This document shows positions 22,065 to 24,668 of a stretch of 64,000 nucleotides of DNA, piece after piece. The stretch is from NCBI GenBank assembly GCA_007135805.1, contig SLID01000099.1, positions 1,882 to 65,881 on the forward strand, read 5' to 3'. This DNA is from Candidatus Omnitrophota bacterium. Its GTDB lineage: Bacteria; Omnitrophota; Gorgyraeia; Tantalellales; Tantalellaceae. The translations under genes and the position numbers were made by a program. The stretch's first letter is position 1; each line of letters begins with the position of its first letter. The notes beneath the pieces were generated by a model. That model searched no databases. It saw only the letters and a list, made by a program, of their open reading frames with translations, and had not been told where the DNA came from.

Positions 22065-22799
22065 ATGAGGAACGTAAAACTGACTATCGCTTACGACGGC
22101 ACAGCCTACAAAGGCTGGCAGGTACAGAAAAACGGCCGGACCGTACAGGCCGAGATAGAAAAAGCTATAGCCAGGGTGATAGGATCAAAACACACGGTAC
22201 ACGGCGCGGGACGTACGGACGCGGGAGTTCATGCCATAGCACAGGTCGCTAATTTCAAAGCCCCCATAAACTTTGATGTTGCCAGGATACCCCCCGCCCT
22301 TAATACCGTTCTTCCCGGGGACATAGCCGTAAAAAAAGCGGAAGAAGTTCCGCCGGATTTTCACTCCAGATTCGACGCCAGGGCTAAAGTCTACAGTTAC
22401 AGGATAGTCGTGAGCCGCGCGCGCGATCCCTTTTCCGAAAGATATGTCTGGAGGTTGCCGTACGCCCTTGATGAAAGAATTATGAGAGAAGAGGCCCGTG
22501 TTCTTATTGGGAAACATGATTTCAAGAGTTTTCAGGCCTCGGACAAGAGGGAGCGTTCATCGGTCCGTACGATCAAGAGCATAAGCATCCAGAGGACCGG
22601 AAGCAATATTACCTTAGACATCGAGGGTGACGGATTTCTTTACAACATGGTCCGCAGTATAGCGGGAACCCTGGTGGACATAGGAAGAGGTTATCTTCTT
22701 CCGGGGAGTATGACGGATATACTTGCCTCCCGTGATCGAAAAAAAGCCGGTCCCACTGCCCCCGCCAAGGGTTTATTCCTTGTCAAAGTGAAGTACTGA
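22065..22799 (+). CDS. truA: tRNA pseudouridine(38-40) synthase
   Basis: 244 aa. IAYDGTAYKGWQ start and GAGRTDAGVHA catalytic Asp motif. Confidence 0.9.
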   Translation: MRNVKLTIAYDGTAYKGWQVQKNGRTVQAEIEKAIARVIGSKHTVHGAGRTDAGVHAIAQVANFKAPINFDVARIPPALNTVLPGDIAVKKAEEVPPDFHSRFDARAKVYSYRIVVSRARDPFSERYVWRLPYALDERIMREEARVLIGKHDFKSFQASDKRERSSVRTIKSISIQRTGSNITLDIEGDGFLYNMVRSIAGTLVDIGRGYLLPGSMTDILASRDRKKAGPTAPAKGLFLVKVKY

Positions 22800-22889
22800 A
22801 TATAGACCGCTCCCGGCATGCGGCAATTTCCTTATTTGCCCCGGCAGCGGGAGTCTTTATGTACCTTCTATCTTGCTTTTTATCCCGCT

Positions 22890-23015
22890 TCCGGCGCCTT
22901 ACTGGCGCGGTCATTGTGAAGCTTTCGCGGTGAATGACTGATATTCCCTTTGAGGGACGCTCGGTTTTCCCAGCGCGGAAATCATCGCTGGGCGGACTCC
23001 CTCGCTCTTTCTGCT
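22890..23015. repeat. Dispersed ~125-nt intergenic sequence element, copy A
   Basis: About 80% identical over about 100-125 nt to 42191..42315. Shared blocks CATTGTGAAG(C)TTTCGCG(R)TGAAT ... GATATTCCCTT(Y)GAGGG(R)CGCTCG ... TCCTCGCTCTT. Confidence 0.7.
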
Positions 23016-23022
23016 CGGGACA

Positions 23023-23277
23023 CATCGCGAACCATGCCCGCTCGGCGAACATTTCATTTATACGCGGGAACTTTCAGTCCCGTCATCGCGAACCATGCCC
23101 GCTCGGCGAACATTTCATTTATACGCGGGAACTTTCAGTCCCGTCATCGCGAACCATGGCCGTTCGGCGAACATTTCATTTATCCGCGGTAACTTTCAAT
23201 CCCGTCATCGCGAACCATGGCCGTTCGGCGAACATTTCATTTATCCGCGGTAACTTTCAATCCCGTCATCGCGAACC
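23023..23277. repeat. Tandem direct repeat, 61-bp unit x 4.2 copies
   Basis: Units start at 23023, 23084, 23145 and 23206, with a partial unit at 23267. Units 1-2 are identical and units 3-4 are identical; the two subtypes differ at a few positions. There are no spacers, so it is not a CRISPR array. Confidence 0.95.
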
Positions 23278-23300
23278 CCGCGAAGCGGGGTGAAGCGATC
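23265..23300. repeat. Conserved hairpin motif CGCGAACC-[CCCCGC gaa GCGGGG]-TGAAGCGATC terminating the tandem array
   Basis: 7-bp GC stem (23275-23291) with GAA loop. The same motif, with compensatory stem changes, is at 8645..8677. Confidence 0.8.
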
Positions 23301-23560
23301 TCAGTTTAAAAACATTTAGTTTTTCCGGAAACAATCGATATGCTGAAAGTCGCCTTGTTACAGAGGAAAGTACAAAGCTCCTTAAAGTTATAAGGAGCCT
23401 TCCGTAAACAGTCTCTCTCCGAGATGTTTCAATTTGATGGCATCACTTCGCCGCCCCCTTCGGGGCGCCCTCGTGATCGTGTCGTTTAGATTTACCGCAG
23501 ATGAGTGATGGTTGCTTTCGGCATTCCTCATCAGGCGATAATACTTTTTTAGTCCCTAAT

Positions 23561-23602
23561 TTGACAAGTATAAATACTTGCTGTATACTTGTTGTGTACT
23601 TG
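23561..23602 (+). promoter_or_regulatory. Sigma70-like promoter (TTGACA-17-TATACT) with three TACTTG direct repeats phased at 11 bp
   Basis: -35 at 23561-66 and -10 at 23584-89. TACTTG at 23575, 23586 and 23597, each preceded by TGT(A/G). The repeats overlap the -10 and the start site, as an operator would. Confidence 0.65.
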
Positions 23603-23626
23603 TAAAAGTTTTGTTGAGAGGTTGAT

Positions 23627-23797
23627 ATGGCCAGAAAGAGGGGATTCAAATTCTATTCCACTGTATCGGACCGGGGGCAGATATTTATACCCAAAGTCCT
23701 GCAGGATTATTTTGGTATACGTAAGCGCGATAAGGTGGAGTTTATTGTGAAAGACGACGGGAGCATAGTGTTCGCAAAGAAGGAGGGGAAAGAGTGA
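23627..23797 (+). CDS. AbrB/MazE/SpoVT-family swapped-hairpin DNA-binding protein (56 aa)
   Basis: Not in the ORF track (below 60 aa). MARKRGFKFYSTVSDRGQIFIPKVLQDYFGIRKRDKVEFIVKDDGSIVFAKK fits the SpoVT/AbrB domain pattern (..rGQvtIPk.iR..lgi..GDkvef.v.ddg.ivl.k). GAGAGG RBS 5 nt upstream, consensus promoter upstream. Confidence 0.7.
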   Translation: MARKRGFKFYSTVSDRGQIFIPKVLQDYFGIRKRDKVEFIVKDDGSIVFAKKEGKE

Positions 23798-23973
23798 AGA
23801 AAAAAAACAGGACCCATTCGCACAAGGTGACGATCAATGATCAGCGGCGGGTAAACAAGATGGCCTCGGATCTAGGCAGCAAACCCGTTTCGAAAAAGGT
23901 CGTACACAATGTATTCGAGACATATTACAAGAATCAGGTAAAAGCTCTTTACCGGGCTGTTCTTGGAGAATAA
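23794..23973 (+). CDS. Small basic hypothetical protein (59 aa), translationally coupled to the AbrB-like gene
   Basis: GTG start overlaps the upstream stop (GTGA). Strong SD AAGGAGG lies 7 nt upstream, inside the upstream gene. Product VKKKNRTHSHKVTINDQRRVNKMASDLGSKPVSKKVVHNVFETYYKNQVKALYRAVLGE has no family I recognise. Alternative ATG at 23860. Confidence 0.4.
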   Translation: MKKKNRTHSHKVTINDQRRVNKMASDLGSKPVSKKVVHNVFETYYKNQVKALYRAVLGE

Positions 23974-24106
23974 AGGCTTTTTGTCCGGCCGGGATAGAAA
24001 CAAAGGAACATACTTCCGAGGGGGCCAACTTTTACAGTTTGCTGGATAGCGTCGTGTCTTCTGAAAGAAAGTCCTGGAATTCTCTTGACTCCTTGTTAAA
24101 ATGCCC

Positions 24107-24133
24107 TTGACAAGCAAAGCCGAATGTGATAAT
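24107..24133 (+). promoter_or_regulatory. Sigma70-like promoter with extended -10 (TTGACA ... TGtGATAAT) for rplM-rpsI
   Basis: TTGACA at 24107-12. TGnGATAAT at 24125-33 (15-17 bp spacing depending on the hexamer chosen). About 75-nt leader before rplM. Confidence 0.55.
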
Positions 24134-24209
24134 TTTAGCATTCTATTCAGGCGGTGAGCGTGTTCACGCAGCACCGAGGGTTTATTATGTCCAATAAAAG
24201 ATTTAATGA

Positions 24210-24668
24210 ATGAAGGCAATTATGAAAACAAAAATGGTGAAACATAAAGAGACTTCTCATGAATGGTTTGTGATGGATGTCGAAGGACAGGTATTAGGTA
24301 GGGCAGCCAGCGAGATCGCGACGCTTTTGAGCGGAAAGTACCGACCCGATTTCACTCCGAATGTGGATAATGGAGCGGGGGTGATTGTGCTTAACTGCGG
24401 AAAGGTTAGGATAACTGGAAAGAAAGCTGAACAAAAATTTTACAAGAGGTTTTCGGGATATCCGGGTGGACAGAAAGTCACAAGGTACGACAAGATGATG
24501 GAAAAGGATCCCACTTATGCTCTAAGGCACGCGGTCAGAGGTATGCTGCCCAAGAACAAGCTGGCTACGCTTATGCTGCGGAGACTCAAGCTATACGTTG
24601 GGACAGAACACCCCCACGAGGCCCAGAAACCCGTGGAGAGGAAAATACAAGACGGAGATGAAAGATGA
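24210..24668 (+). CDS. rplM: 50S ribosomal protein L13
   Basis: [36 protein letters not shown] and [19 protein letters not shown] match L13. The start may be the ATG at 24222. Confidence 0.9.

Follow-up and report, generated by a model that had tools for sequence, protein, structure and literature searches.

A promoter-operator and two-gene cassette encoding an AbrB-type protein and a small basic partner is conserved at several fixed positions in Omnitrophota genomes

Background

The Omnitrophota are uncultured bacteria, often ultra-small and possibly host-dependent, and gene regulation in this phylum is almost unstudied. In this work we analyzed a stretch of 64,000 nucleotides from Candidatus Omnitrophota bacterium (contig SLID01000099.1 of assembly GCA_007135805.1), hereafter the window, in which two small overlapping open reading frames, ORF1 and ORF2, lie between truA and rplM. 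The question raised by this locus is whether the pair is a toxin-antitoxin (TA) module or a regulatory unit of a different kind. A first-pass annotation, made from the letters alone, had described it as a single hidden module in which an AbrB-type protein and a basic partner are expressed from one promoter carrying phased repeats, and had suggested a TA-like system. From the comparison of approximately 125 related loci it was found that the pair instead belongs to a family that extends across the clade, with several copies per genome and one shared promoter-operator; the TA reading was weakened by the same comparison.

Results

The ORF1-ORF2 pair is repeated at conserved positions in Omnitrophota genomes

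On each of the long contigs with homologues of ORF1 or ORF2 that were opened first, the gene order is asd-truA-[ORF1-ORF2]-rplM-rpsI-argC-argJ-argB, and dozens of Omnitrophota genomes hold the pair in the slot between truA and rplM-rpsI. When one genome per species was scanned, 60 loci were obtained, all in metagenome-assembled genomes (MAGs) of Omnitrophota, some of them mislabelled as Planctomycetia; approximately half of these loci are in the truA-rplM slot and the others lie elsewhere, and a genome often has two or three copies. The paralogous copies sit 5' of the phosphofructokinase gene (pfk), of an isocitrate/isopropylmalate-dehydrogenase-like (icd-like) gene and the GMP synthase gene guaA, of bioB-bioF-bioC, gatCAB and fabG-fabF, of an EF-G paralogue (fusA-like) and of a gene for an Rrf2 regulator. 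Many of the MAGs that carry the cassette have been deposited as 'uncultured Planctomycetia bacterium' (binchicken, SRP series); their cassette and synteny match those of Candidatus Omnitrophota MAGs, and this naming is probably a matter of the taxonomic label.

ORF2 was found automatically in 76 of the 84 unique instances of ORF1; in 3 more it was intact on inspection, and the other 5 run off their contigs. It is consequently present in all 79 evaluable loci, most often with the 4-nt overlap that is seen in the window, where the start codon of ORF2 and the stop codon of ORF1 share the letters GTGA. A two-gene, translationally coupled module had been proposed for this locus, and a broken ORF2 frame beside a preserved ORF1 had been set beforehand as the result that would refute it; the frame is intact in the 79 loci, and in this family ORF1 never occurs alone (0/79). 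Three loci that at first seemed to have only ORF1 (L051, L068 and L072) do contain ORF2, which is intact there and varies in its C-terminal motifs, and the idea of a frameshift in L051 was wrong. The reverse situation does exist: a metagenome scan that relied only on the promoter motif described below gave 53 loci, 48 of them evaluable, and ORF1 lies just downstream of the motif in 40 of them, whereas in the other 8 an ORF2-like gene is located directly behind the promoter without ORF1, including the rplM slot in L084/L108 and in L095. Given that ORF2 is always present behind the promoter, and that its N-terminal half depends on the site, we tentatively regard ORF2 as the cargo of the cassette.

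Three types of ORF2 were distinguished. Type A (signature HKVTIN..RRxNK) precedes rplM in 33 loci, and fabG and gatC in one each; type B (H.C..GGS.YGKK..KKVSP) precedes the icd-like gene in 10 loci, pfk in 9, bioB in 2, and genes for an Rrf2 regulator and a YacP-like protein in one each; type C, with a variant N-terminal half, precedes fusA-like genes. Since the subtype tracks the site, the paralogues are old and positionally stable.

In the 33 unique rplM-linked loci, the mean identity to the window copy is 72% for ORF1, the same range as for the ribosomal proteins L13 (70%) and S9 (72%), and 51% for ORF2. In these loci the divergence of the pair correlates with that of the housekeeping genes (rho 0.39 for ORF1 and 0.54 for ORF2). 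The fact that both genes diverge in step with housekeeping genes indicates that the cassette is inherited vertically and is not mobile. The promoter motif was absent from viral contigs, ORF2 was absent from phages and plasmids, and the PADLOC defence-system models contain no family for ORF1 or ORF2; on these results an origin as a defence system or mobile element was rejected.

An almost invariant operator overlies the cassette promoter

The near-consensus promoter noted by the first-pass annotation was confirmed: TTGACA-17 nt-TATACT (23561-23589) matches the consensus at 11/12 positions and is the best-scoring site of the region in a consensus scan. Superimposed on it there are four copies of a hexameric half-site (Table 1). 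Three of these are direct copies of TACTTG that start at 23575, 23586 and 23597, with a spacing of exactly 11 bp, as had been described; the longer repeat TGTRTACTTG proposed for all three fits only copies 2 and 3, given that copy 1 reads AAATACTTG. An additional half-site in inverted orientation, CAAGTA (23565-23570), had been missed; with the first direct copy it forms the palindrome CAAGTAT-AA-ATACTTG. The hexamer itself is not rare, since TACTTG/CAAGTA occurs 31 times on both strands of the window, which is the random expectation, but four of these copies fall within 38 bp at this promoter.

The proposal that the repeats constitute an operator is favoured by their phasing and by their conservation. 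When 61 unique upstream regions were anchored on the -35 hexamer, they gave the consensus tttttt..t..t...TTGACAAGTAt..aTACTTGyt.TATACTTGtta, whose 24 specified positions hardly vary, either among orthologues or among paralogues; the near-invariant part is the 31-bp motif TTGACAAGTA-N4-TACTTG-N3-TATACTTG. Around this motif the intergenic DNA cannot be aligned among loci, and the synonymous sites of the adjacent genes are saturated. Half-sites 1 to 3 are essentially universal among the relatives and form the conserved core. The third direct copy (half-site 4, allowing one mismatch) was found in 20/41 type A loci and 2/28 type B loci; the three-repeat arrangement thus holds in part, with the first two direct sites and the inverted site conserved, and the last one restricted to about half of the rplM-linked copies and rare elsewhere.

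In two loci (L031 and L056) half-site 2 is flipped to CAAGTA with its position unchanged. Because this flip in register is tolerated, and a spacer read only by RNA polymerase would not require it, the half-site is probably recognised by a protein. The T-tract 5' of the -35 hexamer may play the role of an UP element; that it is merely the terminator of the upstream gene was rejected, since a hairpin is found there in only 17/74 loci.

The motif occurs exactly once per locus, always just 5' of the cassette, and in the window together with approximately 690 kb of fetched related DNA, a sample biased to cassette neighbourhoods, every palindrome or phased pair of TACTTG sites lies in a cassette promoter.

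ORF1 is a stand-alone SpoVT/AbrB domain

The AbrB/MazE-type fold that had been proposed for ORF1 was corroborated by several methods. ORF1 scored above the cut-offs of PF04014 (25.5 bits, cut-off 24.7) and TIGR01439 (31.9 bits, cut-off 28.3), and under the cut-off of the PrlF family PF15937 (29.2, cut-off 32); its closest family models include the PrlF/MazE antitoxin models and one antitoxin family of PHROGs. In the PDB, a profile of ORF1 homologues matched PhS018 (2glw), the N-domain of SpoVT, and Abh. The AlphaFold2 monomer has a pLDDT of 76, with an N-terminal hairpin that is not assigned as strand, and its top Foldseek matches were SpoVT, AbrB-N, Sso7c4, the 'histone-like' protein 5itj and MazE (TM 0.6-0.7, rmsd 1.5-2.3 A), with probabilities up to 1.00 and E-values that are weak, the domain being tiny. 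With the profile cut-offs exceeded and a superimposable beta-beta-alpha-beta-beta half-barrel fold, ORF1 belongs to the SpoVT/AbrB domain superfamily.

Twenty columns are invariant among 36 homologues of ORF1, including the segment TVSxRGQIFIPKxLQ, and the nonsynonymous differences (pN 0.05-0.15) are far below the saturated synonymous ones (pS 0.58-0.97). The domain spans residues 9-51 of 56, and in nearly all homologues it is followed by a tail of only 5-10 residues of mixed charge. Because the domain fills almost the whole protein, there is no room for a C-terminal toxin-binding segment like those of MazE, VapB or PrlF.

ORF2 represents a new family of small basic proteins

A profile search with ORF2 recovered 118 proteins, nearly all of 55-65 aa, and those with a named source are all from Omnitrophota. 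An exhaustive hidden Markov model search of 1.84 billion representative proteins gave only 68 clusters (50% identity), nearly all of 53-83 aa; two long matches (P0187 and P0215) are low-complexity or repeat artefacts. In line with the earlier remark that the product resembles no recognised family, ORF2 has no family in Pfam, NCBIfam, PADLOC, PHROGs or among the PDB sequences. Several homologues carry in JGI the label 'lysine/ornithine N-monooxygenase', a misannotation that reflects sub-threshold noise against PF13434 (best E 0.014, 19/111 members). The relatives begin with ATG, in place of the GTG of the window copy, and with the same saturated pS the pN of ORF2 is 0.15-0.33, which denotes purifying selection. 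These comparisons show that ORF2 is a genuine gene and that it represents a new small-protein family.

An AlphaFold2 model based on 111 sequences (pLDDT 79.5, pTM 0.38) predicts a helical hairpin, with a disordered basic arm (residues 1-13), a helix at 14-29 (RRxNK...D) and a second helix at 34-57 (VFxTYYKxQVxALYRAV); no structural neighbour of this model was found. The segment KVTIN followed by two helices gave rise to the idea of a ribbon-helix-helix (RHH) protein, which was not supported. A Pfam search of the 111 members, extended to E<=1, gave no RHH family; the model is free of strands and has helices (16 and 24 residues) longer than those of RHH proteins; and type B ORF2 lacks the KVTIN segment entirely.

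The cassette is a transcription unit of its own

The downstream gene is co-directional with the cassette in 57/68 loci, with a median gap of approximately 220 nt, and terminator-like hairpins downstream of ORF2 are scarce (10/76 loci). Nonetheless, rplM, pfk, the icd-like gene, bioB and fusA are each preceded by their own conserved promoter, and none of these promoters contains TACTTG. In three loci the distance between ORF2 and rplM is enlarged by inserted DNA (approximately 1.2 kb in L017, 1.4 kb in L026 and 3.2 kb in L076). The possibility that the cassette serves as the promoter of the downstream operon is weakened by the promoters that these operons have of their own; given the scarcity of hairpins after ORF2, read-through may occur, but it is not the rationale of the cassette, which is an autonomous transcription unit.

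Some additional features were observed in these spacers. In L017 inverted repeats (GGGGTCAGACCTTGACATGTGACATTTG ... CAAATGTCACATGTCAAGGTCTGACCCC) border the insert, suggestive of a small mobile element, and the spacer between ORF2 and rplM in L042 contains a short tandem array of GTATTCA/GTATTTA repeats (...AGTATTCAGTATTCAGTATTCAGTATTCAGTATTTGGTATTTAGTATTTAG...). The rplM promoter of the window consists of TTGACA at 24107-24112, a 17-nt spacer, and TGaTAATTT with the -10 hexamer at 24130-24135; the consensus of the relatives, at the equivalent position in L001-L071, is CTTGACAAA...CAAATATGTTAATTTTAC and includes a conserved block in the spacer. In several relatives the 5' leader of rplM has a hairpin followed by GGTTTTAAT, possibly an attenuator or a feedback element for L13/S9; Rfam gave no match. 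In L034 and L055, where bioB follows a type B cassette, the bioB promoter holds, approximately 40 nt 5' of the gene, the inverted repeat TTGTAAAC...N...GTTTACAA, which looks like a bio operator of the BirA type.

Layout of the window copy

A gap of 1.41 kb separates the end of truA (22799) from the start of rplM (24210) in the window, and it contains a 61-bp tandem repeat, ORF1 and ORF2, and the promoter of rplM. The positions of both genes, their 4-nt overlap and the ribosome-binding site of ORF2 agree with those first annotated (Table 1). The tandem repeat (23023-23277), which lies between truA and the cassette, has 4.2 copies of the unit CATCGCGAACCATGCCCGCTCGGCGAACATTTCATTTATACGCGGGAACTTTCAATCCCGT with 97% matches; the unit was not found again elsewhere in the window, nor in any of the fetched loci, so the idea of a dispersed element was dropped. 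In most relatives the gap between truA and ORF1 is shorter. Rfam gave no match at the gathering threshold over the whole window, and none at E<=1 over 22780-24230; on this result a hidden noncoding RNA in the gap was also dropped.

Table 1. Features of the cassette in the window
Feature	Position	Strand	Description or basis
T-tract 5' of -35, possibly UP-element-like	23545-23550	+	T-rich at this position in 61 unique loci
-35 hexamer TTGACA	23561-23566	+	consensus scan; invariant in 61 unique loci
Half-site 1, CAAGTA (inverted TACTTG)	23565-23570	+	overlaps -35; invariant across loci
Half-site 2, TACTTG	23575-23580	+	in promoter spacer; conserved across loci
-10 hexamer TATACT	23584-23589	+	consensus scan; alignment of unique loci
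Half-site 3, TACTTG	23586-23591	+	overlaps -10; nearly universal
Half-site 4, TACTTG	23597-23602	+	around likely transcription start; facultative
Shine-Dalgarno GAGAGG of ORF1	23616-23621	+	read from sequence; 5 nt 5' of ATG
ORF1	23627-23797	+	ATG start, 56 aa; stand-alone SpoVT/AbrB swapped-hairpin domain, putative operator-binding autorepressor
Shine-Dalgarno AAGGAGG of ORF2	23780-23786	+	inside ORF1; read from sequence; 7 nt 5' of GTG
ORF2	23794-23973	+	GTG start, 59 aa; basic protein of a new family, type A

Discussion

The interpretation that we tentatively favour, and to which we give a little less than an even chance, is that promoter-operator, ORF1 and ORF2 form a self-contained, autoregulated unit that is specific to this clade, vertically inherited and multi-copy, in which ORF2 acts as a co-regulator or effector. 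The promoter would be a very strong one of the sigma-70 type (T-tract, TTGACA, 17 nt, TATACT), on which three or four half-sites are superimposed at intervals of one helical turn; the first of these is inverted and covers the -35 region. ORF1 is predicted to dimerise into a swapped-hairpin barrel and to form higher oligomers, which would bind the half-sites along one face of the DNA, occlude RNA polymerase, and set the expression level of the whole cassette. From the coincidence of an AbrB-type binder, a coupled basic partner, and invariant half-sites over the -35, the spacer, the -10 and the start, we infer that ORF1 binds this operator and represses its own transcription. Given that every paralogue keeps the same operator and the same DNA-binding residues in ORF1, all the copies in a genome may answer to one shared ORF1 pool. 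ORF2 would be made in fixed proportion to ORF1 by translational coupling and would be the real cargo, a small helical-hairpin protein of very basic character. The aromatic helix conserved at its C-terminus most likely serves for dimerisation or for binding a partner, and its variable, position-specific basic N-terminal half may contact nucleic acid or ORF1. We read ORF2 as a putative co-regulator or nucleic-acid-binding effector, and not as a classical toxin.

Several points weigh against this model. The assignment of the operator to ORF1 is made by inference, and ORF2 or a third factor could be the protein that reads it. To find a regulator acting solely at its own promoters is also what would be expected of a TA module or another selfish module. 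In DNA sampled mainly around cassettes, a wider TACTTG regulon may have escaped detection. The promoters of the downstream operons remove the simplest reason for the conserved positions, and the model of ORF2, a moderate-confidence monomer (pTM 0.38) for which structural neighbours were lacking, gives no functional handle.

A bolder proposal, which we regard as rather unlikely, is that ORF2 founds an Omnitrophota-clade family of small basic helical effectors and forms with ORF1 a new distributed circuit. In such a circuit, several cassettes fixed in position, each with an identical operator and its own copy of a shared repressor, would release site-specific variants of ORF2 in unison beside core operons (translation, glycolysis, nucleotide, biotin and lipid), either as a global growth-state switch that acts on the neighbouring operons or as a new class of toxin.

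We consider it unlikely that the pair is a true type II TA system, with ORF1 as AbrB-type antitoxin and autorepressor and ORF2 as a basic helical toxin of approximately 58 aa directed, for example, against nucleic acid or the ribosome; such a system would have been domesticated anciently beside essential operons, and paralogous ORF1 would neutralise orphan ORF2 in trans. The organization of the cassette is the canonical one, given that in the operons of AbrB-type type II antitoxins (MazE, PemI/Kis, PrlF and AbrB-type VapB) the DNA-binding protein is also encoded by the first of two overlapping genes and the operator also lies over their own promoter. These antitoxins share with ORF1 the N-terminal fold (Pfam families PF04014/PF15937), antitoxin models are the top family matches of ORF1, there are several copies per genome, and the operator is found only at the cassettes themselves. 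Unlike in those systems, the partner is a helical, basic protein of 59 aa that fits no toxin family or fold (MazF/Kid, PIN, YhaV, RelE/ParE, Doc, HicA and others), ORF1 has no C-terminal neutralising segment, and both proteins are basic. Furthermore, the position has been kept over deep divergence, with ORF1 evolving as slowly as L13 and S9; the paralogues share an identical operator and DNA-binding surface and are not insulated from each other; the orphan pattern is reversed, with ORF2 alone in 8/48 loci and ORF1 alone in 0/79; and searches of phage, plasmid, viral and defence-system libraries gave no match. Membership in the MazEF, PrlF-YhaV or VapBC families was discarded on the same grounds, that is, the lack of a toxin fold, of a neutralising tail, and of a patchy or mobile distribution.

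It is quite unlikely that both products are abundant nucleoid-associated, chromatin-like proteins, with several copies and strong feedback-controlled promoters to ensure a high dosage. Supporting this idea, both proteins are small and basic, the consensus promoter has a T-tract, the cassette is multi-copy and conserved at the level of ribosomal proteins, and ORF1 has the size and fold of Sso7c4 and of the 'histone-like protein' 5itj/5itm. Sso7c4, the 'histone-like' AbrB-fold proteins of Sulfolobales and C68 of pSSVx are, like ORF1, stand-alone basic proteins of approximately 55 aa (Foldseek TM ~0.6-0.67); in contrast to ORF1 they are archaeal or viral, with identities to it of about 19-26%, and we know of no conserved partner gene or specific operator for them. 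An invariant specific operator implies sequence-specific recognition and not a general coating of the DNA, and ORF2 subtypes that track the site would be unexpected for a generic architectural protein.

Slightly less probable still is a locus-specific regulator pair, in which each cassette would control the next housekeeping operon by read-through or by binding of ORF2 to the neighbouring promoter or leader, with the subtype of ORF2 providing the specificity. The co-directional neighbour at a short distance, the few hairpins after ORF2 and the correlation between subtype and downstream operon agree with this possibility; the TACTTG-free promoters of those operons and the long inserts between ORF2 and rplM do not, and type B precedes unrelated operons (pfk, icd-like, bioB) that have different promoters. 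This reading and the nucleoid one overlap with the autoregulated unit that we favour. Finally, we give practically no credit to ORF2 being a chance open frame next to a lone AbrB-like regulator: it is short and starts with GTG in the window, but this reading is refuted by conservation, that is, by more than 110 homologues of constant length, the ATG starts and invariant motifs of the relatives, a pN far under the saturated pS, a perfect Shine-Dalgarno sequence and a confident helical model.

Among the known systems, the N-domains of the Bacillus transition-state regulators AbrB, Abh and SpoVT have the same swapped-hairpin fold in a domain of approximately 50 aa, and they are the best matches of ORF1 in Foldseek and the PDB. 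Proteins of the AbrB family bind DNA as a dimer of dimers, and their autoregulation is known. In contrast with them, ORF1 has no further domain at its C-terminus for oligomerisation or sensing, is invariably coupled to ORF2, and is multi-copy; the operator of the cassette is sharply defined and invariant, whereas AbrB sites are degenerate. MraZ, another protein of AbrB-like fold that heads clusters of housekeeping genes, is encoded by the first gene of the dcw cluster and represses its own promoter through direct repeats phased by approximately one helical turn. It differs in having two tandem domains in approximately 150 aa, in being single-copy and followed by rsmH, in its repeat (TGGGN) and in the lack of an ORF2-like partner, and its homology with ORF1 does not go beyond the superfamily level. 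ORF1 is therefore not MraZ: it has a single domain in 56 aa, truA and rplM as neighbours, and no match to the MraZ family. By analogy, the cassette would be nearest in function to the AbrB-family autorepressors, with MraZ as another parallel, and in gene layout to the operons of AbrB-type antitoxins.

In the part of the literature covered by our search no paper names both Omnitrophota and AbrB, and the matches for Omnitrophica and antitoxin were judged irrelevant. The cassette is an undescribed one, clade-wide, multi-copy and fixed in position; its operator is exceptionally conserved, and one of its products belongs to a new small-protein family. It also advises caution, given that an AbrB-like gene plus a small overlapping open reading frame is not always a TA module. 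For the Omnitrophota, it represents a pair of small proteins conserved at the level of ribosomal proteins and found repeatedly, at fixed sites, next to core operons. Should ORF1 bind the operator, the phylum would have a ready-made and tractable regulatory circuit, consisting of a 31-bp site and two proteins of less than 60 aa; and, if the model is true, the target of ORF2 could point to a level of growth control particular to this lineage, or to a new type of toxin.

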